Part shown: positions 2,775 through 49,862 of the stretch, one piece after another
Layout of the letters: each line of letters starts with the position of its first letter
Numbering within the stretch: the stretch's first letter is position 1
Assembly (NCBI GenBank): GCA_964383495.1
Contig: CAYLHG010000003.1
Span: forward strand, 17,771-81,770
Source: an uncultured Gammaproteobacteria bacterium
GTDB lineage: Bacteria > Pseudomonadota > Gammaproteobacteria > JABCZS01
Direction: 5' to 3'
DNA: 64,000 bases
Translations under genes and position numbers: made by a program
The notes under the pieces: model-generated
The model's input: the letters and a program-made list of their open reading frames with translations, nothing else
Databases searched by the model: none
What the model was told of the DNA's origin: nothing

Positions 2775-3980
2775 ATACTCATCCATAAATCGTACATCCC
2801 TCGCAACTTTTTCTCCACGGCGACGGTGGCAACGGCTGATCATCCAATAACCCACCACACCTGATGTAATAGAGCCAATAAAAATACCGATCCGATCAGC
2901 TGCGAACCCATCCAATGTGCCAGGAACAAAAGAAAGTGATGCGATGAACAAACTCATGGTAAACCCAATACCACATAAGATACAGCCACCATACATGGTC
3001 ACCCAATCTGTATGTCGCGGCAGCTTCGCCACACCTAACTGAATAGCTACCCATACAAAAGCTGCAATGCCTAGCTGCTTACCTATAAATAAGCCCAACG
3101 ATACGCCGTAAGTCACCGTGTTAGCAAAGTCATGAATGGTTAAATTACTCAAATGCACACCTGCATTTGTAAACGCAAACAACGGCAAAATACCATATAC
3201 AACGTAAGGATGTAACGCAAATTCTAATTGTTTTAAAGGGGAAGGGATCCCTTTAGTTCCTTTGTGAGGAATCACTAGTCCCAACGCCACACCTGCTAAC
3301 GTTGCATGCACCCCAGACTTTAGCACAAACAACCACATCACCAAGCCAACTAACATGTACGGTGTTAGCTTGCGCACCCCCAGGCGATTGAAAGCAAATA
3401 GAATGGCCAAACACACTAGTGAACTCATCAACATGGTAAAAGATAAATCATGCGAATAGAAAAAGGCAATCACCATAATGGCGCCAATATCGTCAAAAAT
3501 CGCCAAAGATAATAGGAACATCCGCAAACCGGGTGGAACACGTTGGCCCAACAGCGCTAACATACCAAGGACAAAAGCAATGTCTGTAGCGGTAGGAATT
3601 GCCCAACCATGGCTGTAAAGAGGGTTCGCATGATTAAACAAAGCATAGATCAAGGCGGGCACTAACATTCCGCCCAGCGCCCCAATGGCAGGCAGCGCAA
3701 CCTGCGAAGGCGTTGATAACTCCCCTTCCAGGGCCTCGCGCTTCACTTCTAATGCGATCATCAAGAAGAAAATCACCATCAAGCCGTCATTAATCCAAAG
3801 CAGTAGAGGTTTGACTAATTCTCGCTGCCCCAGCGACACGCCAAATGCAGTAGATAATAACAACCCGTAAGCATCTTTTAAAGGAGAGTTAGCCACCAGC
3901 AAGGCGAGCACGGCGGCTGAGAATAATAGGATGCCTCCGACCAATTCACGGGTAAAAATTTTGCTGATGACCTTATTCAT
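2769..3980 (-). CDS. nhaA: Na+/H+ antiporter NhaA
   Basis: N-terminus MNKVISKIF..GGILLFSAAVLALLVANS aligns to E. coli NhaA. FFLMIALEVKRE motif present. Start placed at the internal Met (3980) rather than the ORF-track start at 4025. Confidence 0.85.
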   Translation of the reverse strand: MNKVISKIFTRELVGGILLFSAAVLALLVANSPLKDAYGLLLSTAFGVSLGQRELVKPLLLWINDGLMVIFFLMIALEVKREALEGELSTPSQVALPAIGALGGMLVPALIYALFNHANPLYSHGWAIPTATDIAFVLGMLALLGQRVPPGLRMFLLSLAIFDDIGAIMVIAFFYSHDLSFTMLMSSLVCLAILFAFNRLGVRKLTPYMLVGLVMWLFVLKSGVHATLAGVALGLVIPHKGTKGIPSPLKQLEFALHPYVVYGILPLFAFTNAGVHLSNLTIHDFANTVTYGVSLGLFIGKQLGIAAFVWVAIQLGVAKLPRHTDWVTMYGGCILCGIGFTMSLFIASLSFVPGTLDGFAADRIGIFIGSITSGVVGYWMISRCHRRRGEKVARDVRFMDEYS

Positions 3981-16954: not shown

Positions 16955-17896
16955 TTATGCAAATGCTTTTAAACTTAATTGCTCTATTATTTGAATTGCT
17001 TTTTCATAAGGTTGAGCAGATTCGATTTCATAAACCATAGAATTTATAAATTCTTCATAGCGTGATTTCCATAATACACTTTCTTTCAATAACATCAAAG
17101 ATCGTGTTATCTCTGCAGCAGGGTTGTCTGAATATTCTGGATGTTGATTTTTAAATTGAGCCGCGTCGTTTTCAATAATGACTTTAGATAATCCATAAAA
17201 TGCATCACTTATTTTATCAGCTTTTTTAATCGAGTTAAGATCATAAACATGCCGGATAAGCGTCTTATCATCAAAATGATATTGACGTTCAATGGCAACC
17301 ACTCTGCGTGTTAATCCTACCCATTTTTCAACAGCTGTTTCATCCACACAAACACACTCTACAGATAAAGATGAAAAAATTTTAGGAATTTTGATTGTTT
17401 CTTCAATAATGGTTTGAATATTTAAACTCTCTGTTCCAAGACGAACGTCTGCTAAAGTAAACTCTAAAAGAAGATGCGGTCTTAAAATATTATTTGTTTC
17501 AAACAAAATAGGATAAGTTAACTCAACTCTTGAATATTTCCCCTCATTCCTCACGGCAAAATCACTAATACTGAGATTTGTTGTTGATAGCAAGGAAAAT
17601 ATTTTTTTTCTAAATTCTTTTAATTCTTTTAGTAATTTACTTTTACTAAATTTTCTAGCATCCTGTTTTGTACAAATTTTAAAATCAATATCTTCTGACA
17701 TTCGCTTTACAAGCTTATGTGCCTTTGATAAGCAAGTCCCTCCGCAAAAAACTAATCGAAAATATTCATTTTCTAATCCTGCAATTGCATGAATAGCTTG
17801 TGTGACGTAATAATCTTTTTCAAGGACTGCTAAAGGCAAATTAATTTGCTGATTAGCAATAGAAACCAACTCATACAACTCTTTTTTATTTAGCAT
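16955..17896 (-). CDS. AbiEii-family nucleotidyltransferase (type IV toxin-antitoxin / abortive infection toxin)
   Basis: EKDYYVTQA...FCGGTCLSKA...RMSEDIDF matches the DUF1814/AbiEii signature. Confidence 0.8.
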   Translation of the reverse strand: MLNKKELYELVSIANQQINLPLAVLEKDYYVTQAIHAIAGLENEYFRLVFCGGTCLSKAHKLVKRMSEDIDFKICTKQDARKFSKSKLLKELKEFRKKIFSLLSTTNLSISDFAVRNEGKYSRVELTYPILFETNNILRPHLLLEFTLADVRLGTESLNIQTIIEETIKIPKIFSSLSVECVCVDETAVEKWVGLTRRVVAIERQYHFDDKTLIRHVYDLNSIKKADKISDAFYGLSKVIIENDAAQFKNQHPEYSDNPAAEITRSLMLLKESVLWKSRYEEFINSMVYEIESAQPYEKAIQIIEQLSLKAFA

Positions 17897-18314
17897 TGAT
17901 ATTATTCTCGAAAAATAACTTACTATTTTGGTAACCGATTTGACGTCGGCAACGCTTCTTCAATCTAACAATATTCCGAATCGGAATTTGCGTCGATTTG
18001 CCCGTATTATACTCCTCCTCAAGGCTTCCTGATTCATAAATAATATCTAAACATTTCAAAGCTTCTCTTAATGCTGCATCGATCCCCCCCTTAATAAGCG
18101 GTATATCAGAATAGGGGGATAGGTACGCTTTTGCATATACACCAGCACCTATTCTAACTATTTTTTTCTGCGCAATCAGCCTATCTAAAGCGCGACTTAC
18201 CTGACGATAAGAGCCAAGATCATTAAAATTTTGACGCAAAAACACGTTTTCACGAATCGATTTGATGCGCTCCCACACCTTACATCCAATGCTTTCTAAA
18301 TACTTAACCCGCAT
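17886..18314 (-). CDS. AbiEi-family antitoxin / transcriptional regulator
   Basis: 142 aa, motif RLIAQKKIVRIGAGVYA. Overlaps the start of the AbiEii gene by 11 nt. Confidence 0.65.
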   Translation of the reverse strand: MRVKYLESIGCKVWERIKSIRENVFLRQNFNDLGSYRQVSRALDRLIAQKKIVRIGAGVYAKAYLSPYSDIPLIKGGIDAALREALKCLDIIYESGSLEEEYNTGKSTQIPIRNIVRLKKRCRRQIGYQNSKLFFENNINAK

Positions 18315-21071: not shown

Positions 21072-21152
21072 ACGTGTCCATCTGCAGCTCTAGGCTTTCC
21101 TAAATTAGAGCTTGGTGGTAAAAAAAGAGGGGCTACATAACAGCTCAAAAAC

Positions 21153-21187
21153 CTTGCAATAATAATATAATATATTATTATTGCAAG
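21153..21187. repeat. Perfect 16-bp-arm AT-rich palindrome (cttgcaataataatat-aat-atattattattgcaag) abutting the start of the frameshifted ATPase gene
   Basis: Seen in sequence. Confidence 0.7.
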
Positions 21188-21188
21188 C

Positions 21189-22339
21189 ATGATAACTCGG
21201 CTATCTCAATCGACAATCCTACAGCAGCTGCGCCACTCACCCGCTGTAGCCTCTTAGGCCCGCGGCAAGTAGGGAAAACCACGCTCGCTCGCGAAATTGC
21301 TAGGCAATGGCCCAAAGAAAATGTTTACCTTGATTTAGCAAGGATTAGCGAACCTGAAATTTACCTCAAAAAACCAGGCAAATTAATTATTCTTGATGAA
21401 ATTCAAAGAGTTCCCACGCTATTCCCTGTATTGCGATCAATCATTGACGAGCGTCGCTTTGCCGGTGAAAAAAATGGGCAATTTTTGCTTCTAGGGCCTG
21501 CTTCGTTGGACATTGTTCAAGGTGTTTCAGAAAGTCTTGCAGGTCGCGTGTCTTATGTCGATTTAGGTATTGTAAATGCACTTGAGTATTCCTCCGACAA
21601 CGATTTAAATCCCTTATGGTTACGGGGTGGGTTTCCAGAGAGTTTATTGGCAGGCACAGATATAGAAAGTTTTATTTGGCGAGAAAATTTTATTACAAGC
21701 TATCTGGAGCGCGATATTCCCAATTTAGGGCCCAGAGTTCCTGCTGAAACGTTACGGCGTTTTTGGACAATGCTGGCACATCTACAAGGGCAAATCATCG
21801 ATAAAGCCAGTATTGCTGCGGGTATCGGCGTAAGCGCTCCTACCATTGCACGTTATATTGATCTTTTAGTCGATTTATTTTTACTTCGTCCGCTACAACC
21901 ATGGTCAGGCAATATCGGCAAACGTTTGGTTAAACGTCCTAAGTATTTTATTCGTGACAGTGGTTTAGTACATGCATTATTAAATCTTACAAGCCTAGAT
22001 GATTTACTGGGCCACCCCGTAGCAGGTAAAAGTTGGGAAGGATTTGTTATAGAAAATTTATTGTCTATAGCGCCTAAGCGAGCCATCCCATTTTTTTATG
22101 AATCAAGCAGCAAAGCAGAAATTGATCTTGTTTTTGAAATCTCACCTCACACCCGTGTTGCCATAGAAGTAAAACGATCTCTCAATCCCACACTTTCAAA
22201 AGGATTTTACAATGCCTGTGAGGCGCTTGCCATTGAGCAGTCCTACATTGTTTATCCTGGACAGGAACGTTTCGCCTATGCTAAAAATATTGAAGTATTG
22301 CCATTGAAAGAAATGATGGAAATGATAAGAGACATGTAA
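21189..22339 (+). pseudogene. DUF4143/AAA_14 ATPase gene, frameshifted near the Walker A region
   Basis: ATG at 21189 gives MITRLSQSTILQQLRHSPAVAS*. The +1 frame then continues LLGPRQVGKTTLAREIA...DEIQRVP into the ORF-track protein (TTG at 21431). A 1-nt indel lies within 'gtagcctcttagg'. Confidence 0.6.
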
Positions 22340-22467
22340 TTTATTTCAAAACTGGCCACAATTTCTCTCGCCAGCGTGGGCTTTCCTACCTGGCGCTCCC
22401 CTATAATGGCTACGACAGGGAACAGGGTCATCAACGTTTTTAAAGAAGGGCAACATTCCGCTGGCAA
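22276..22467 (-). pseudogene. N-terminal remnant of a second DUF4143 ATPase gene in opposite orientation
   Basis: Encodes ...LFPVVAIIGERQVGKPTLAREIVASFE then degenerates. Overlaps the 3' end of the frameshifted copy. Confidence 0.45.
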
Positions 22468-22527: not shown

Positions 22528-24105
22528 CTAGGGATTCCCCCCTAAATCAGGGCCTGCTTTTGGAATGTTACCAGAAGCAATTGGCTGAGCCGAGTATCCA
22601 GTGAGGCTAGTTGAGCTTGTTGCCGTACAACGCAAGGTGCTTTGTAACTGCTCAAGATGGGCGTACAGGGGCACTTTATAAATGTCATTTACTAAAAAAC
22701 TGACGGGGACATTGTGTTCAAATAAAATGGTTATCCGAAAACTGGGCTTGGAATTCTCATTTGTATTTTCTTGGATACAATGCACTTGATGTGGGATAAC
22801 GCCTATACTAAAAACTAATTCAGTGTAAACAGCAACAAGCAAATTTTCTAGCTGGTCTTGACTCGAAGTTGGTATAAGCAACCCTATGCTTACATAGCTG
22901 TCATCCCCAATGGGGAATAGCTTATCAATGACAGTATTTGCTGCTTCGACATTTCGAAATCGGACCAGCGCATTCGCAAGGATAGCGGCTATTTTCATTT
23001 TTTTTAAAAGCGCTTGTTGATTGTCTGCACGATATGCTGAAAGCGCAAGATGAAAAAAATCATGCTCAGGCATTAAAGAAGGGCCTAGATATTGGTCATG
23101 TGCTGCGTAAAGATTACTTTTAGCATTAGGTAAGTAAGCTTGTACAAGGCGTGCCCCAAAAAAAGCAGCAGCATTAAACGCTTCATAAGGCAGATATCCG
23201 AAAGCAAATATAGGAAGCACTTGTTGTCGTGTGTTCCTTAAAGCACCATAAAGGAGTGCGATGGAGGGATAATGGATACTGAGTTTTTGTTCATTATTGG
23301 TCACGTAATAAGGTAATCCACCAATCAAAGTTTCTATAGTGACTGGCAGCCGTTTCCACTCATCTAGCGGTTCCGTGACCCGCTGGTAAGCCAACCGGCC
23401 CCATTCAGAAGCCAAAATGCCAGTATAGCCCAATGTAATATCTGCAAAAACCACTTGATGTAATAAGAGGGGCTGACAAGATGGAACGTACTCTTTTGAA
23501 CGCGCTTTTAAGGGGGTTTGCTCTGTTGCCATGTACAGTGTAAACGGCGCTTCGCCAAACTGAATAATGCTTGCTTGCCACAAAAGCAACGTATTGAGTG
23601 TATCTATAGAAAGTGCGCCTTGATCTACCCTATTCAATGCTACGCCCAACCATTGAGATGTTTTAAACAAAGCACATAAGCGGGTTTTTAAATCCTGCAA
23701 TGCTTCTTGTGTTATTTCTTCTTCAGGTTGATTGAAAGTGTTATTAATAGAGGAAATCTGCGCAGTAATATTGTGACATATATTTGGGTTCTCAGGCAGA
23801 TCAAGTAAAAGTTGATCTTCTTTAGTAACAAATGCAGTTAAAAACCACCGCTTGAGTAGCTCAACGTTATGGGCAAATGGTTGTTGAGAGAGATGAAAAA
23901 GATCGACAAGCGCAGATGATGGGAGAGGCTGCTTTTGATTTGAAAGTACTCGTTGCTTTTGCTCTTCTTTGCTTGGAATCTGTGCAGCCCATTGTTTCGC
24001 CCACTCGGGGCTATCTTGGGAAACAAAGGGAGAGGGACCAAATTTTAAATGCTCTGAAGGAATCATCTGCAACACCCCAATTACAATATATTTGTAAGTT
24101 ATCAC
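22528..24105 (-). CDS. Hypothetical 525-aa protein, 15 bp downstream of znuA on the same strand
   Basis: Long ORF with no recognisable motifs. True start may be the Met at 24066. Confidence 0.55.
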   Translation of the reverse strand: MITYKYIVIGVLQMIPSEHLKFGPSPFVSQDSPEWAKQWAAQIPSKEEQKQRVLSNQKQPLPSSALVDLFHLSQQPFAHNVELLKRWFLTAFVTKEDQLLLDLPENPNICHNITAQISSINNTFNQPEEEITQEALQDLKTRLCALFKTSQWLGVALNRVDQGALSIDTLNTLLLWQASIIQFGEAPFTLYMATEQTPLKARSKEYVPSCQPLLLHQVVFADITLGYTGILASEWGRLAYQRVTEPLDEWKRLPVTIETLIGGLPYYVTNNEQKLSIHYPSIALLYGALRNTRQQVLPIFAFGYLPYEAFNAAAFFGARLVQAYLPNAKSNLYAAHDQYLGPSLMPEHDFFHLALSAYRADNQQALLKKMKIAAILANALVRFRNVEAANTVIDKLFPIGDDSYVSIGLLIPTSSQDQLENLLVAVYTELVFSIGVIPHQVHCIQENTNENSKPSFRITILFEHNVPVSFLVNDIYKVPLYAHLEQLQSTLRCTATSSTSLTGYSAQPIASGNIPKAGPDLGGNP

Positions 24106-25859: not shown

Positions 25860-27416
25860 TTAGTGTCGCTTGCTACTGCCAGAGGCTGAAGCGTAAGGTT
25901 GTGCTGCAGCAGCAATAACAGCTGGCGCCATTAAAGGTGCTTGTCCATGCAAATGCTGGACATGCACATATCCTTTAGCGCACGCCGGGTTATATTGCCA
26001 ATGTAATGTGGTAGGATTACATTGCAAAGCACCTAAACCTACTAAGCGCTGCGTGACACCTGGTTTATCTTCTGGATTTTTAAGTGGGCTTTTACCTGAA
26101 TTGTTATTTGGTTTCTGATCTAATGAGGAGGACTGCGCAACACGCAGCTCTCGCATTAATAATAAGGTGTTTGGATCATTTAAAGCGACAGGGTAACTTA
26201 CCATTTTATTACCTCTAAGGGGATCCTTGTACTGAATTTGATCTATTATCTGCTCGTTTGATTTACCTAACAACACTGTCAGTACTTCATTTTCAATAAA
26301 ATCGATTGCATCAAGCGTAGGAAGCTGCATGGGCGCTGCACGATGTTTAATATAATCAATATCAACCACCTGGTGTCTTCCATCATACTTTACATACTTT
26401 TCCGTTATCAATATGTTTATTTTTCGACTTGCTGCTAAAATTTCTGCATTATCAACGCTTCCTCGCAACAATAAAAACCGTTCACACGCACGATAACAAG
26501 CATGAAAAATAAGTTTCTTTTCGTAAAACATATTAGGTTCATTCCATGTGCCTAGGCTTATTAAAGCTGTTCCTACAATCTTCTGCATGTTGAGAAGTAA
26601 AGCATTATTTTGCATTAGAGCACGATACATATCCATCCTATCCATAATATCTTGCTTATAAACATCCAGCCGATACTGCGCTGTTACTGGCGCAAAGCCT
26701 GCAGAAATGAGCGCAGACACACGGCTGCCAATAAACAATACACCCAATACAAAAGCACCGATTCCTAAATCCCCATCAAAAACGGTGGCTGCATACGCCA
26801 TGAAAATAATAGCACTAAACACTGTGCCTAAAAAACCATTAAAATCATGTGCGTACCGGCTTGCTTGCATGTAGCGAATCGCTCGGGAAGGCCCTACTTC
26901 CTCCGTTTTGTCTGTCTTACTATTCACTAACTCCTGCAGCTTCACCTGAGCGTCGTAATATTGCTGAATCTTATGGTGGTTGGCTGCACTTCCCACAAAC
27001 ACTGCGAACATGTTCATTAACATTCCCGCATTGATGACTAAAGCAGCCCACAACGGCATGTCCTGAATCGCTACCCCTATACTTTTAATAATCGCATCAA
27101 CATGGGATACGTCACCCCCTGCGTGCATCGCAGCATCTGCCACATTAAACGCCTGTATGGCAATGGGCACTAGCACGATAGCCAACACTGCCAGAATGGC
27201 TATATTCGTCATAATACGCACGATACGGGAAATATGGGCCGCCCATCCTGCTTTCAAACGCCCATCAAATGCCCAATTGCCAAAGTCAAATAGGAAAGGA
27301 ACCCAGTGCTTGGTGTATAAAGCTCGCCCCTTTGCAAAAAAATGCCAAAAAATTCCCGAACCTTTGTGAGAATGCCCGTGACTGTGCGCTTCACCAGCAT
27401 GGCTGTGACTCCCCAT
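25860..27416 (-). CDS. Hypothetical polytopic membrane protein with His-rich N-terminus (MGSHSHAGEAHSHGHSHKG) and a ~270-aa C-terminal soluble domain
   Basis: 518-aa ORF, 11 bp upstream of queF on the same strand and divergent from znuC. Several hydrophobic helices between residues ~60 and 240. Confidence 0.6.
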   Translation of the reverse strand: MGSHSHAGEAHSHGHSHKGSGIFWHFFAKGRALYTKHWVPFLFDFGNWAFDGRLKAGWAAHISRIVRIMTNIAILAVLAIVLVPIAIQAFNVADAAMHAGGDVSHVDAIIKSIGVAIQDMPLWAALVINAGMLMNMFAVFVGSAANHHKIQQYYDAQVKLQELVNSKTDKTEEVGPSRAIRYMQASRYAHDFNGFLGTVFSAIIFMAYAATVFDGDLGIGAFVLGVLFIGSRVSALISAGFAPVTAQYRLDVYKQDIMDRMDMYRALMQNNALLLNMQKIVGTALISLGTWNEPNMFYEKKLIFHACYRACERFLLLRGSVDNAEILAASRKINILITEKYVKYDGRHQVVDIDYIKHRAAPMQLPTLDAIDFIENEVLTVLLGKSNEQIIDQIQYKDPLRGNKMVSYPVALNDPNTLLLMRELRVAQSSSLDQKPNNNSGKSPLKNPEDKPGVTQRLVGLGALQCNPTTLHWQYNPACAKGYVHVQHLHGQAPLMAPAVIAAAAQPYASASGSSKRH

Positions 27417-29929: not shown

Positions 29930-29933
29930 CCTT

Positions 29934-30551
29934 TTACCGAATTGGACGCGTACGAGAACTAGGCTCATCCACTACATCCATTGCTTCGACAAACAAAGCA
30001 TTTACTTTTAGCGAGTGACTAGCAGGCTGCATATAGAGAAGAAAATTAGATGCTTGTTGGCCTTGAGGCAAATATCTCTTAGCAGCGTGTTCGAGATACG
30101 CTTTATCACATCTATCCGACACTGCTTTCCAATACTCACATGTCTCAATCAATGCAGCAACATCTGAGATTGTTCGCATCTTATCCGGATATTCCGTAAA
30201 ATCAAGTAGATACATGAAGTTTTGCAACGAACGCTTTATTATGTCCGCGTATGTTCCAAAACATTTAACAAAAAAAATATTCCATCTATTATTGTTTGCT
30301 ACTTCTAATCTTATATTCGAGCATGAAAGCCGATATTTTAGCAAAATCAGCACCATCTGGATGTGGTCCCGGTCCCCAGTAGAAGCCAACGCATTAGGAA
30401 AATCAACACTTTCAATAAGAGTATTAATCTCGACCTGCCTAAAATTAGTGGGGTCATGAGGTTTCCCCATGGCACTCCATACAGCCTTGGCTGCTTCTTT
30501 TTCACGCTGAGCTTCGTTCTGAGGTATAACTGCTGTTGAATTACTACGCAC
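29934..30551 (-). CDS. Hypothetical 205-aa protein immediately downstream of the intact DUF4143 ATPase
   Basis: ORF with no recognisable motifs. Same strand as the ATPase, 79-bp gap. Confidence 0.5.
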   Translation of the reverse strand: MRSNSTAVIPQNEAQREKEAAKAVWSAMGKPHDPTNFRQVEINTLIESVDFPNALASTGDRDHIQMVLILLKYRLSCSNIRLEVANNNRWNIFFVKCFGTYADIIKRSLQNFMYLLDFTEYPDKMRTISDVAALIETCEYWKAVSDRCDKAYLEHAAKRYLPQGQQASNFLLYMQPASHSLKVNALFVEAMDVVDEPSSRTRPIR

Positions 30552-30630
30552 CTTATTTTTCCTACATCTATTCAGGCAGCTATATAATAACCTAAAACAA
30601 GGCAGCTGGTCAAATGCTATCGACGATATT

Positions 30631-31959
30631 TTAAGCCGATAAAGATAACAATAATCGAGGCAATTCGGGGATTAAATAAAAAGGAATAGACAAAATTTGC
30701 TTATCCCATTGGGGTAGATCAGCCCAAATACGCGCTCCGCACAAAGATTTTTTTTCTTCCATAAATAATTGTAATGATTTCAGCCGCCCGGTGCTACCCG
30801 CTTTAACTTCAATAGGGATAATATTATTTGCCACTGTTAATAAATAATCTATTTGAGCTTGACTATTTTTTGCCTCTCTACACCAAAAAAATAAATGAGG
30901 ATCATCATCCATTGCTTGCAACGCTAACAACTCTTGCCCTACAAATTGCTCTGCTAATTCACCAGCATTTAAAAATAAAATATTTTGATTCAATAGCAGA
31001 TCCGCTGTCAATAAACCACTGCAATTCGCCAACCCAATATCAATAAATAATAATCTAAATTTTTTTAGATCAATGACTGCTGTTAAAGGCAACCCCGCTG
31101 CAGCCGTTCTATAAACGGGGCAAAGCAACCCTGCATTAAATAAATTTTCTAATGCTTGCTTTATTGCAACAGCGCGTATATCAGGATCAATTTTATTATA
31201 TTTTACCCACTGCGATACAAATTGAGGCGCCTGCTTCAACAAAGTTTCTAATAAAGCATGCTGAGTGTGTTTTGCATACTTCCCAAAATCCAATCGATAA
31301 CTTGCTAATAATGCTCGTTGCACTTCTTGAGCACGTAAAAAGCTACCTGTTTCAAAATAAGCATTCAACACGGCAGGCATCCCCCCTAGTACCGTGTATT
31401 CTCGAATAAGCGTTATAAGTTTTTCATGTATCGGTAAAGCGAGAGGAGACGTCATATCATAATGGCGTAAATAGTCTTTTAATTTTTTATGCCCAGCTGC
31501 TTCTAAAAACTCATAAAACGTCAACGGCTTAAGGTATAAAAATTGTACGCGCCCCACAGGCATACGAAAATTTTCATCACGTAAAGCAAATTCTAATAAA
31601 GATCCTGCCCCTACCACATGTAACGCTGAATACTGCTCTTTAAAATAGCGTAGTGCCATAATAGCATTGGGGCACTCTTGAATTTCATCTAAAAATAAAA
31701 GTGTTTCTCCAGGAATAATAGGTATCTCAGATAAGACCTCAAGCAGGGCGGTGATTTTTTGAGGATCCAATGTATCAAAACATGCCTTGTATTCTGGACG
31801 TTGCTCAAAATTAATAACACAAAAATGCTTAAAATATTTTCTGCCAAAATCGGTCACCAAATGGGTTTTACCCACTTGCCGAGCGCCTCGTACCAATAAA
31901 GGGGAGCGCACAGGATTGCCCTTCCAATCTAAAAGCTGAGCCAAAGCATCTCTGTCCAT
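30631..31959 (-). CDS. AAA+ ATPase, DUF4143/AAA_14 family (intact copy)
   Basis: Walker A LLVRGARQVGKTHL, Walker B LLFLDEIQ, DUF4143-type C-terminal region. Confidence 0.75.
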   Translation of the reverse strand: MDRDALAQLLDWKGNPVRSPLLVRGARQVGKTHLVTDFGRKYFKHFCVINFEQRPEYKACFDTLDPQKITALLEVLSEIPIIPGETLLFLDEIQECPNAIMALRYFKEQYSALHVVGAGSLLEFALRDENFRMPVGRVQFLYLKPLTFYEFLEAAGHKKLKDYLRHYDMTSPLALPIHEKLITLIREYTVLGGMPAVLNAYFETGSFLRAQEVQRALLASYRLDFGKYAKHTQHALLETLLKQAPQFVSQWVKYNKIDPDIRAVAIKQALENLFNAGLLCPVYRTAAAGLPLTAVIDLKKFRLLFIDIGLANCSGLLTADLLLNQNILFLNAGELAEQFVGQELLALQAMDDDPHLFFWCREAKNSQAQIDYLLTVANNIIPIEVKAGSTGRLKSLQLFMEEKKSLCGARIWADLPQWDKQILSIPFYLIPELPRLLLSLSA

Positions 31960-31974
31960 TTTTCACCCTACAAA

Positions 31975-32033
31975 TGCTAAAATACAGGGTTATTTTAGCA
32001 TAATAAATGCTAAAAAACAGGGTTATTTTAACA
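31975..32033. promoter_or_regulatory. Two tandem copies of a palindromic site (TGCTAAAATA-n6-TATTTTAGCA, then TGCTAAAAAA-n6-TATTTTAACA), 16-75 bp upstream of the ATPase start
   Basis: Seen in sequence. 10-bp arms, 6-bp spacer 'cagggt', duplicated with a 33-bp period. Confidence 0.45.
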
Positions 32034-32223
32034 ATAAATTTAATAAATCAGTGACAATGCTTTGCAGCCCGTTTGTAAGTGCTTAATTTTAAATAACTTC
32101 GCTCTATCTCGTTAAAATTCATCAAACTAATGAGCACGGCCAAAAGGAGCGTACTACAAAATAGACGCGTCTAGAAGAAAGTAGGGCACAAAATAACCGG
32201 CTAGAGCACTCTCTATTTCGGCT

Positions 32224-33300
32224 TTATATACAAAGAGCTGAAAGTCGCAGCACCGCTTCCTTTTCATTTTCACCCACCACGGTGACATGCCCCAGCTTGC
32301 GTCCAGGTTTGGCCGTCTTGCCGTAAATATGATAAAAAATATGGGGTTCACATTTCATCTCTGCAGCTTCTGGCACCGACCCAATATAATTTATCATGAT
32401 GCTGAAACCCTTAGCATCACAAGCACCTAATGGTAAACCTGCTATGGCACGTAGATGATTTTCAAATTGTGACGTTTGCGCACCTTCGATGGTCCAGTGC
32501 CCGCTGTTATGAACGCGCGGTGCCATTTCATTTCCGATCAATGTATTATCTTTAACGAAAAATTCTATCGTTAATACACCCACGTAATTTAATGCTTTCA
32601 ATATTTTTTTCATATAATGTTGCGCCGCTAATGAAAGTGTTTCATTTACAAGCGGTGCTCGTGTAATACGTAAAATTCCTCCTTGATGTTCATTTTCACA
32701 TAAAGGATAAAATAATATTTCCCCCTTTATATTACGCACACCCATTAATGAAATTTCGCGATCAAATTTTACCAAGCCTTCATAAATTAATGCAGCAGGG
32801 GAAAGTGCTTCCACTCCCGCCACTAAATCTTCTTTTGAATAACAACGTATTTGCCCTTTGCCATCGTATCCTAAACGTCGCGTTTTTAAGATGCCAGGCA
32901 ACCCTACCGCTTCTAGTGCAGCAGAAATATCCAACTCGGTATTAATCGCATAAAATGGCGCGGGGGATAAACCCACTTGTTGAAATAATTGTTTTTCAAA
33001 CAAACGATCTTGTGAAATTTCTAATGCTTTTACAGAAGGGTAAAATGACTTTTGACTGCTTAAATATTTTGCAAAATCAAGAGGTATATTTTCTGTTTCA
33101 ATAGTAATAATATCAACGTCATTCACAAATGTTTGAACATGTGCAGCTTTCAATGCGGGCACAACACAAAGCGCAGACTCTCGCCCTGCACATTCTTCTT
33201 GCGATAGTGCTAAACATATTGTCTCAATATTCATTTGCTTTGCCGCTTGCGCCATCATTTGCGCTAACTGCCCCGCACCGACAATACCTATCCGCATCAC
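32224..33300 (-). CDS. purK: N5-carboxyaminoimidazole ribonucleotide synthase
   Basis: ATP-grasp PurK with [12 protein letters not shown]-terminus. Confidence 0.9.
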
Positions 33301-48615: not shown

Positions 48616-49038
48616 TTAAGGGATATCTTCTATCCAAATCATTAGCTTCGCCAAAGGCGTATCTTGCAATATATTAAATAATTTTTGATCAGCAGTTACC
48701 AGCAAACATTCTTCTTTTAACGCCAAAGCAACATACAGTGCATCATAGAAAGTGCACTGATATGTTATTGCTATTTGCCATGCATCATTCAGCAATAGTT
48801 CAATAGCACAGCTCTCGAGGGGTAGACGTTGAAAATCTGATAAGATTTGACATGCGTCCTCTTTAGATATTTCTTTGAAACGCTGCTTTTTCCAAAGAAT
48901 ATTCCCTATCTCAGCAAAAAGCAAATTTGGCACTAATAATTTAGTGTTTTTTTTCCACAAATTTTGTGCATGTAAAGTGTAATTTTCTGGAATAAACCAT
49001 TTAATAGCAACACATGCGTCGACTACTACTGTTTTCAC
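48616..49038 (-). CDS. vapC: PIN-domain toxin (VapC-like)
   Basis: MKTVVVDACVAIKW N-terminal acidic residue plus conserved downstream D/E positions. Stop 4 bp from the GH3 stop. Confidence 0.75.
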   Translation of the reverse strand: MKTVVVDACVAIKWFIPENYTLHAQNLWKKNTKLLVPNLLFAEIGNILWKKQRFKEISKEDACQILSDFQRLPLESCAIELLLNDAWQIAITYQCTFYDALYVALALKEECLLVTADQKLFNILQDTPLAKLMIWIEDIP

Positions 49039-49268
49039 CGGGTATCTCTATCCTCTCGCACTAATGAAGCACTGTCACTAAACGCCCCTCCCGATAAACG
49101 TTGCTGCCAAGCAGCGCTTATTTTTGCAGCGTCAGCAAAAGACACTTTGGTAGCAGTTTCAATAATGCATTTTAACTCCCCCTGCAATGATCGATGATGC
49201 TTTTTTGCTAATAATTTCAAAGAGTTAATCGTGCTGCTGTCTAAGTTACGAATGAGCAAATCAGGCAT
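49035..49268 (-). CDS. vapB: Ribbon-helix-helix antitoxin (VapB/FitA-like)
   Basis: MPDLLIRNLDSSTINSLKLLAKKHHRSLQGE, an Arc/MetJ-type N-terminal strand. Overlaps the vapC start by 4 nt. Confidence 0.65.
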   Translation of the reverse strand: MPDLLIRNLDSSTINSLKLLAKKHHRSLQGELKCIIETATKVSFADAAKISAAWQQRLSGGAFSDSASLVREDRDTR

Positions 49269-49304
49269 ATTTTCTCCTTTTGATATCATAATGATAGCAT
49301 ATTT

Positions 49305-49862
49305 TTAAGAAAAGCCAATACACCCCTCATGCGCCAGCAACCATTTTTTGCGGTCTAGCCCACTAGAATATCCGCCCAACGTCCCATTACCCTGAATCAC
49401 ACGATGGCACGGCACAATAATGGTCAATCGGTTCGCACCGTTTGCATTTCCCAGCGCACGGCTTGCACCCGGTTTCCCTGCAATATTTGCTACCTCAGCG
49501 TAACTGCGTGTTTCACCGCACGGAATTGTTTGCAACGCACGCCAAGTCGCTTGTTGGAAATCTGTCCCTAATAAACGGACCGGTGTTTTAAAAACACGCA
49601 ACATGCCTGCAAAATACTCTGCCAACTCTTGCTGAATTTGATGCAACGGCGCTGTAACTTCTGTGCCCAGCGTAAACGGTGTATGTTTTTGCAATTTTTT
49701 TATTTCTTTTTCAAACTTTTTACTTTCTTTAAATTCCAATAATATCAACGCATCTTTATCTGCAATGGCAAACATATCGCCTAATGGAGTTTGAATTTGT
49801 ACTGAGGAAAATGTGCAGGCTGTGGATGGAATTCTATCATTTTGCGTAAGTCCTACATTCAT
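49305..49862 (-). CDS. ogt: Methylated-DNA--protein-cysteine methyltransferase
   Basis: IPCHRVI active-site motif and HTH region. Confidence 0.9.
   Translation of the reverse strand: MNVGLTQNDRIPSTACTFSSVQIQTPLGDMFAIADKDALILLEFKESKKFEKEIKKLQKHTPFTLGTEVTAPLHQIQQELAEYFAGMLRVFKTPVRLLGTDFQQATWRALQTIPCGETRSYAEVANIAGKPGASRALGNANGANRLTIIVPCHRVIQGNGTLGGYSSGLDRKKWLLAHEGCIGFS

Follow-up and report, generated by a model that had tools for sequence, protein, structure and literature searches.

A 33-bp-phased palindromic array precedes the gene of a PDC-S01-type ATPase and many of its homologues

The ATPase gene, the units upstream of it and the orphan frame downstream

We analyzed a stretch of 64,000 nucleotides (nt), here called the window, from contig CAYLHG010000003.1 of an uncultured Gammaproteobacteria bacterium (assembly GCA_964383495.1), with a focus on an intact PDC-S01-type ATPase gene and on the two palindromic units that lie directly upstream of it. 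The gene (30631..31959, minus strand) starts with ATG and encodes 442 amino acids, and a Shine-Dalgarno-like AGGGTG, read from the sequence, is found 4 nt ahead of its start codon (31964..31969, minus strand). An initial annotation of this DNA had described the product as an intact DUF4143/AAA_14 ATPase, and this description held: Pfam placed AAA_14 at residues 19-152 (E 2e-23) and DUF4143 at residues 224-388 (E 2e-23), and the PADLOC model of PDC-S01, PDLC04788, matched the protein over its full length (residues 2-437, E 7.3e-139), while no NCBIfam model matched it. The Walker A (GARQVGKT) and Walker B (LFLDEIQ) motifs and the residues D371/E384-x-K386 are intact and were invariant across an alignment of 31 homologues, and so the ATPase and nuclease activities of the protein are plausibly intact as well. 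In its domain order, AAA_14 followed by DUF4143 in one polypeptide, and in its solitary state, with no obligatory partner, the gene resembles the PDC-S01 family as defined in PADLOC (AAA_14 + DUF4143, COG1373).

PDC-S01 was proposed from genomic associations as a single-gene candidate for phage defence, in which an ATPase is fused to a PD-(D/E)xK domain, and has been ranked fourth by frequency among the 'defences' of prokaryotes (PMC12988326); in rumen genomes it was the individual locus encountered most often (PMC13356809), and DUF4143 has been listed among the PD-(D/E)XK families (PMC3424549). The gene of the window is an additional member of this already known candidate family. The searchable literature on DUF4143, COG1373, PDC-S01 and guilt-by-embedding contained no mechanistic or regulatory description, nor any account of the conserved promoter array reported below, so that this family-wide array is undescribed in that literature.

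The AlphaFold2 model of the protein, built with the 31 homologues (predicted local distance difference test score (pLDDT) 86.8, predicted template modelling score 0.86), consists of an AAA+ domain (~1-155), a helical lid, a winged helix (~231-305) and a PD-(D/E)xK nuclease-like domain (~327-425). The initial annotation had proposed looking for a DNA-binding domain in the ATPase, and the predicted winged helix, with helices at 231-247, 254-257 and 263-275 followed by a beta-hairpin wing, would be such a domain; the C-terminal domain is predicted to follow the order alpha-beta-beta-beta-alpha-beta. Foldseek returned two archaeal AAA+/winged-helix proteins first, PABY2304 (2qen, E 5e-07) and SSO1545 (2fna, E 1e-06), which match the AAA+ and winged-helix parts with a TM of ~0.5 on the target at 15-16% identity and are themselves functionally uncharacterised. 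These were followed by origin recognition complex (ORC)/Cdc6 proteins (including 2qby, on origin DNA), RuvB and replication factor C. A profile search of the PDB sequences with the ATPase gave a Walker-region match to midasin only.

The two palindromic units, each of 26 bp, occupy the region 16-74 nt upstream of the ATPase start codon and are spaced 33 bp from start to start, in agreement with the initial annotation, which had noted two tandem 26-bp palindromes within 75 bp of the start. The proximal unit (31974..32001, minus strand) reads ATGCTAAAATA-ACCCTG-TATTTTAGCAT on the gene strand and forms a perfect palindrome around an asymmetric ACCCTG core; it can be described with 10-nt arms and a 6-nt centre over 31975-32000 (TGCTAAAATA-N6-TATTTTAGCA) or with 11-nt arms over 31974-32001. 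This unit is also the best match of our covariance model R1 (44.7 bits), and its left arm, TGCTAAAAT, is readable as an extended -10 box (TGnTAAAAT). The distal unit (32008..32033, minus strand), 33 bp further upstream, reads TGTTAAAATA-ACCCTG-TTTTTTAGCA on the gene strand, and two substitutions weaken its palindrome. The consensus of the units on the gene strand is TG(C/T)TAAAATA-ACCCTG-T(A/T)TTTTAGCA. A search for inverted-repeat pairs further brought up a possible inverted half-unit, AAAATAACC (32190..32198, plus strand), which is located in the 190-nt spacer that follows purK, ~160-190 nt from the array on its upstream side. It could represent either a distal site or a coincidental match, and the other loci did not as a rule show an equivalent.

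Downstream of the ATPase gene, 79 nt after its stop codon, starts ORF205, an open reading frame (ORF) of 205 amino acids (29934..30551, minus strand; GTG start), whose stop codon and that of a convergent kinase gene are only 4 nt apart. The initial annotation had suggested that the ATPase and ORF205 form a defence or addiction pair under one autoregulated operator, a suggestion favored by their common strand, the short gap with no predicted terminator in it and the small variable islet that they share. We regard such a pairing as highly improbable. ORF205, in which the initial annotation had rightly recognised no domain, matched nothing in Pfam, NCBIfam or PADLOC; it retrieved only itself both when 5.8 billion clustered proteins were searched by word index and in an exhaustive HMMER pass over 1.84 billion representatives, and it had no tblastn match in 84 loci encoding homologous ATPases. 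Since ORF205 has no homologue anywhere searched, it cannot co-occur with DUF4143 ATPases, which is what the suggested pairing would lead one to expect. Nor did any other gene family recur beside the ATPase in more than 6 of the 84 homologous loci, and the closest homologues lie in unrelated contexts (see below). PDC-S01 is, moreover, defined as a single-gene candidate, and ORF205 has a promoter-like site of its own (TTGACC-18-TATTAT, 30613-30584).

The coding signal of ORF205 is marginal, with a codon score of 0.158 compared to 0.272+/-0.057 in real genes (minimum 0.133) and a maximum of 0.169 in shadow ORFs, and its AlphaFold2 model, computed from the single sequence, reached a pLDDT of 40.7. 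We estimate that chance would very rarely produce an open frame of 205 codons at this base composition, and ORF205 is probably a real, lineage-specific gene. It is an unrelated orphan that shares the islet with the ATPase cassette, and the local annotation is corrected in that the ORF downstream of the ATPase should not count as its partner gene.

The islet itself (29930..32275), 2.3 kb in size, lies between the convergent purK and APH-family kinase genes, its flanks being the housekeeping operons purEK and znuCB-kinase. It was delimited by comparison with two relatives, both metagenome-assembled genomes of uncultured Gammaproteobacteria. In one of them (L086, PurK 68% identical) the site is empty, with convergent purK and APH-family kinase genes that abut each other (L086 8029-8032), and in the other (L085, PurK 70%) the same junction holds a 372-amino-acid ORF with no Pfam match together with a Phd antitoxin gene (L085 7145-8632). 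Thus, with an empty site in one relative and a different content in the other, the region from 29930 to ~32275 is recognised as a small variable islet. ORF205 showed no similarity to the 372-amino-acid ORF of the L085 islet. The purK homology to the relatives stops at residue 342, and the PurK of the window has a C-terminal tail of 16 amino acids that is absent in them.

Phased units upstream of homologous ATPase genes

The three closest homologues with upstream DNA each carry two units 33 bp apart, of the form GACAAAAT-TACCTTGG-ATTTTGTC, in which the core is identical to that of the window; the arms differ from those of the window, yet they are mutually complementary. Our wider sample comprised 80 loci from species-representative genomes of Chlamydiota, Omnitrophota, Verrucomicrobiota, Gammaproteobacteria, Bacteroidota, Acidobacteriota, Nitrospirota, Spirochaetota and further phyla, encoding proteins 37-52% identical to the ATPase, and the 82 loci whose upstream regions were compared (37-74% identity) come from more than 10 phyla. 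Most of the sampled loci have 2-4 such units just ahead of the start codon. When we searched the 150-nt upstream regions for direct repeats over 46 periods and took as significant those above the 99th percentile of shuffles, 42 of the 82 loci had a significant repeat, with a period of 33 in 38 of them and of 32 in 3, and in ~20 further loci the best period was also 32-33, below the threshold. The arrays contain two copies in 24 loci, three in 14 and four in 3, and end at a median distance of 27 nt from the ATG.

The units are concentrated in this position and orientation. A profile hidden Markov model of the canonical unit gave 51 matches in 83 upstream segments compared to 2 in 410 control segments (both strands), and of 74 unit matches across whole loci, 52 fell within the 250 nt upstream on the sense strand, which make up 1.7% of the search space. 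In the arrays defined solely by periodicity, CCTTG was the most enriched 5-mer other than those of A/T (18 of 41, 2.4 expected); CCYTG was found in sense orientation in 23 arrays and in antisense in 1, and successive cores were spaced 33 nt in 23 of 34 cases. The arms vary among loci but remain complementary, and many lineages keep the period and the core without arms that could form a hairpin. The 33-bp period is kept even in 8 of 12 loci of Bacteroidota, whose promoter consensus differs. Since the sequence of the units differs between lineages and their period does not, periodicity is a more general detector of the array than nhmmer and the covariance model R1, which recover only the canonical third of the units.

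The ATPase gene and its array travel together through dissimilar surroundings. Of the four closest homologues (66-74% identity), two are neighbours of icd on related contigs, one is placed between unrelated genes, and the closest of all (P0003, 74%) sits between the E1-beta and E2 genes of a 2-oxoacid dehydrogenase operon. Genes for GIY-YIG nucleases of 100-112 amino acids are found just downstream of the two closest homologues (including L002 3757-4095); the one next to P0004 follows it directly, and on the contig of P0003 the E2 gene intervenes. Cultured Criblamydia sequanensis and Glaesserella parasuis have plasmid-borne homologues that carry arrays. Bona fide phage genomes contain essentially no homologues of the ATPase. 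On the G. parasuis plasmid (L088, NZ_CP071488, 2300-5906) the homologue, preceded by a three-unit array of 33-bp period, is directly followed by the methyltransferase and endonuclease of a type III restriction-modification system and thus lies in a defence context. At another locus (L019) two copies of a three-unit array lie 1.1 kb apart (2786-2880 and 3898-3965), with genes for a Phd-like antitoxin and a PIN toxin between them (3103-3788), and it looks as if the toxin-antitoxin pair was inserted into the array or duplicated it.

A related element was found in a second subfamily, of which the window contains a decayed member. A frameshifted ATPase pseudogene (21189..22339, plus strand; Pfam, PADLOC) has its Walker-A part, with AAA_14 (E 4e-11), and its C-terminal 302 amino acids, with DUF4143 (E 3.5e-45), in different frames, and matches the other PDC-S01 model, PDLC04790 (E 1.4e-58). 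A fragment resembling the Walker-A part of AAA_14 is present in inverted orientation (22327..22419, minus strand), within an ORF at 22276-22467 on the minus strand (weak AAA_14 match, E 0.0013). The initial annotation had correctly listed both the frameshifted copy and the inverted N-terminal fragment; its view that the family is expanding and decaying here was not supported, as the frameshifted and intact copies align only over their N-terminal ~100 amino acids, at ~26% identity, and match different models. They are old, distant paralogues from anciently diverged subfamilies rather than, as judged from their sequences, products of a local expansion.

Among 80 metagenomic relatives of the frameshifted copy (L090-L169; 49-58% identity), the genes carry upstream an inverted pair, CCTTGCAA-N21/22-TTGCAAGG, in 38 loci with at most one mismatch per arm, and in 27 of these 38 the ATG directly follows the right arm TTGCAAGG. 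This arrangement suggests a leaderless transcript that starts from a promoter inside the palindrome, and suggests that the palindrome is a second, related operator design. In the window, the subfamily-2 element is the palindrome CCTTGCAAT-N19-ATTGCAAGC (21152..21188, plus strand), which abuts the ATG of the frameshifted copy, and so both anciently diverged PDC-S01 subfamilies keep a CCTTG-containing element embedded in the promoter.

Promoter, transcript or operator

An exact TATAAT forms the left arm of 9 of 35 proximal units, compared to none of 21 distal units, and so transcription probably starts inside the last unit. One account of the array would be that of a promoter only, in which the units are duplicated promoter modules forming tandem constitutive promoters with no dedicated binder. 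The spacing fits this account, as a -35-like TTGtat in the core and a -10-like TAAAAT/TATAAT in the next arm are 17 nt apart, and so do the enrichment of TATAAT in the proximal arm and the window arms of the extended -10 form TGnTAAAAT. We nonetheless consider it unlikely. The CC 5' of the TTG, among the most conserved positions of the unit, the T-run and the complementary outer arms are all conserved or covarying though sigma-70 would make no use of them; within units, only 0-4 of 1000 between-locus permutations reached the observed complementarity of the outer arms at four positions. Conservation of the core is no weaker in the proximal unit, although a -35 role is impossible there because the predicted transcription start coincides with the core or precedes it. 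Arrays of three and four units exist, the unit sequence changes from lineage to lineage under a constant period, and a generic promoter scan called no sigma-70 site within the array of the window. The covarying outer arms, the conserved CC, the period kept in Bacteroidota and the palindrome of subfamily 2 are together evidence for an array that is more than a plain promoter.

An array of tandem repeats directly upstream of a putative nuclease gene is also reminiscent of toxI/toxN, and so the repeats could act at the RNA level, either as a transcribed RNA that neutralises the nuclease, as in type III toxin-antitoxin systems (ToxIN, CptIN, TenpIN), or as hairpins in the 5' untranslated region that affect translation or stability. 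With these systems the locus shares tandem repeats of 30-40 nt immediately upstream of a gene for a putative, defence-linked nuclease; a weak promoter-like site (TTAACG-18-TAAAAT, 32115-32086, minus strand) does lie upstream of the array, and the 86-nt array region has a folding energy of -17.1 kcal/mol, a slight advantage over shuffled sequences (z -2.0 for RNA and -2.5 for DNA). The differences are substantial. The protein of the window combines AAA_14 with DUF4143 and is unrelated to the ToxN/AbiQ family of endoribonucleases, no terminator is predicted between the array and the ATPase gene, and the -10 box lies inside the last repeat. The mismatches between arms show no bias towards G.U (32 G.T/T.G, 37 A.C/C.A and 180 other), and no covariation of the RNA type was seen; the stems are A-U rich and weak, hairpin-forming arms are missing from many lineages, and Rfam gave only chance-level matches far below the gathering scores. 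The TATAAT of the proximal arms, the missing terminator, the unbiased mismatches and the absence of an Rfam match are evidence for a DNA-level rather than an RNA element, and we hold an RNA-level role to be quite unlikely.

The reading that we favor, and consider fairly probable from the sequence comparisons and the structural model, is that of an operator array embedded in the promoter and bound by the winged helix of the ATPase itself, which would thereby regulate its own expression. The repeated, palindromic site overlaps the predicted -10 and start region of the gene's own promoter, and the gene product is predicted to have an ORC/Cdc6- and RuvB-like architecture with a winged helix at ~231-305. 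As the ATPase gene is the only gene that travels with the array across phyla and contexts, its winged helix is the parsimonious binder. Initiator-type AAA+ proteins offer a precedent, with archaeal Orc1/Cdc6 at origin recognition box (ORB) elements, DnaA boxes in the dnaA promoter and plasmid Rep at iterons. The AAA+/lid/winged-helix architecture is shared, by prediction, with the ATPase of the window, as is the presence of phased repeats adjoining the gene, and an ATPase that regulates its own gene is therefore plausible. The ATPase differs from these proteins in its extra C-terminal nuclease-like domain and shows no sign of a replication function, and the 33-bp period, CCYTG core and unit sequence of the array are unrelated to ORB elements, DnaA boxes and iterons.

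The proposed circuit would operate as follows. A solitary, single-gene PDC-S01 cassette, consisting of the gene and its array, would be expressed from its own promoter, which would be built into the two 26-bp units 33 bp apart, with their ACCCTG cores and A/T-rich arms that complement each other; in the proximal unit, the left arm would double as the (extended) -10 box. ATPase protomers would bind the phased units through their winged helices and occlude the -10 and start-site region, and this repression would limit a potentially harmful ATPase-nuclease to a low, set amount. Of the autoregulatory operator suggested in the initial annotation, the promoter-overlapping units stand and are extended by phased equivalents from more than 10 phyla. 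The comparisons show the anatomy of the cassette, the conservation of the array throughout the family with its orientation and its position relative to the start codon, and the lack of a partner gene; the ATPase as the binder, a repressive effect of its binding and a role of the protein in defence are what we infer.

Several points weigh against an autoregulatory operator of a defence gene. The strict repeat test was passed by only about half of the loci, and the permutation test of arm covariation ignores the relatedness of the loci. With a period of 33, a spacing of exactly 17 nt separates the TTGtat of each core from the TAAAAT/TATAAT in the unit that follows, and so the geometry of sigma-70 promoters may contribute both to the conservation and to the fixed period. 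When recognition-helix residues were compared by eye with the arm sequences, no correlation was seen. As for defence, the one experimental test found in the literature was negative, in that E. coli B was not protected from T7, T5 or T4 by a representative of PDC-S01 (bioRxiv 10.1101/2024.09.26.614923), and the defence role of PDC-S01, including this ATPase, is putative. Location in a defence locus is the basis of the PDC-S01 candidacy, and here the window copy differs, its neighbours being the housekeeping genes purEK and znuCB-kinase rather than a defence island.

The resemblance of the fold to ORC/Cdc6, including 2qby on origin DNA, raises another explanation, in which the array serves a DNA transaction other than transcription, either as a platform for loading of an ORC/Cdc6-like protein or as the recognition site of a homing-like ATPase-nuclease cassette. 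The occurrence of gene and array as a single-gene insertion at unrelated sites, even inside an operon, would fit a mobile cassette, and so would the duplicated array that flanks the inserted Phd/PIN pair in L019. Such a role is very unlikely in our judgement: the 64-kb window contains no further copy of the unit, either downstream of the gene or elsewhere (0 in 100 shuffles), target-site duplications and terminal repeats were not found, and the array is always in promoter position and orientation.

A bolder version of the favored autoregulatory operator would make the 33-bp-phased CCYTG array a cognate platform for ORC-like oligomerisation of the ATPase, where assembly would couple the activity state of the protein to its own expression. 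The array could in this way sense titration by foreign DNA, or act as the recognition site through which the solitary cassette enters new genomic positions, operons included. We give this speculation a slim chance; were it true, PDC-S01 would be a self-contained module of a protein and its DNA site and not a simple single-gene defence.

Surroundings and significance for the PDC-S01 family

Two toxin-antitoxin pairs are encoded elsewhere in the window. The AbiE pair (16955-18314, minus strand) consists of an AbiEii nucleotidyltransferase of 313 amino acids and an overlapping DUF6088 protein of 142 amino acids in the antitoxin position, and directly adjoins a lipid A acyltransferase gene. The VapBC pair (48616-49289, minus strand), a FitA-like ribbon-helix-helix antitoxin of 84 amino acids with a PIN toxin of 140 amino acids, lies immediately downstream of an O6-methylguanine-DNA methyltransferase gene (region 48616-49862). 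The initial annotation had placed the ATPase 7-14 kb from these pairs and drawn on their vicinity; AbiE is in fact ~12.3 kb away and VapBC ~16.7 kb, not 7 kb, and the argument from neighbourhood is weak, with housekeeping genes in between and the islet empty or differently filled in relatives. Two large ORFs with no Pfam match were also noted, one of 525 amino acids (22528-24105, minus strand), which lies beside the ATPase pseudogene in the position occupied by traT in relative L086, and one of 518 amino acids (25860-27416, minus strand).

PDC-S01 (COG1373) is among the most abundant defence candidates in bacteria and archaea (PMC12988326; PMC13356809). The phased cis-element, conserved and found with the gene from phylum to phylum, is an experimental handle on this family, as it provides both a predicted DNA ligand for the winged helix and a predicted autoregulatory circuit. 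The plasmids of cultured Glaesserella parasuis and Criblamydia carry tractable examples, and the predicted autoregulation may explain why heterologous over-expression tests of PDC-S01 have been uninformative.

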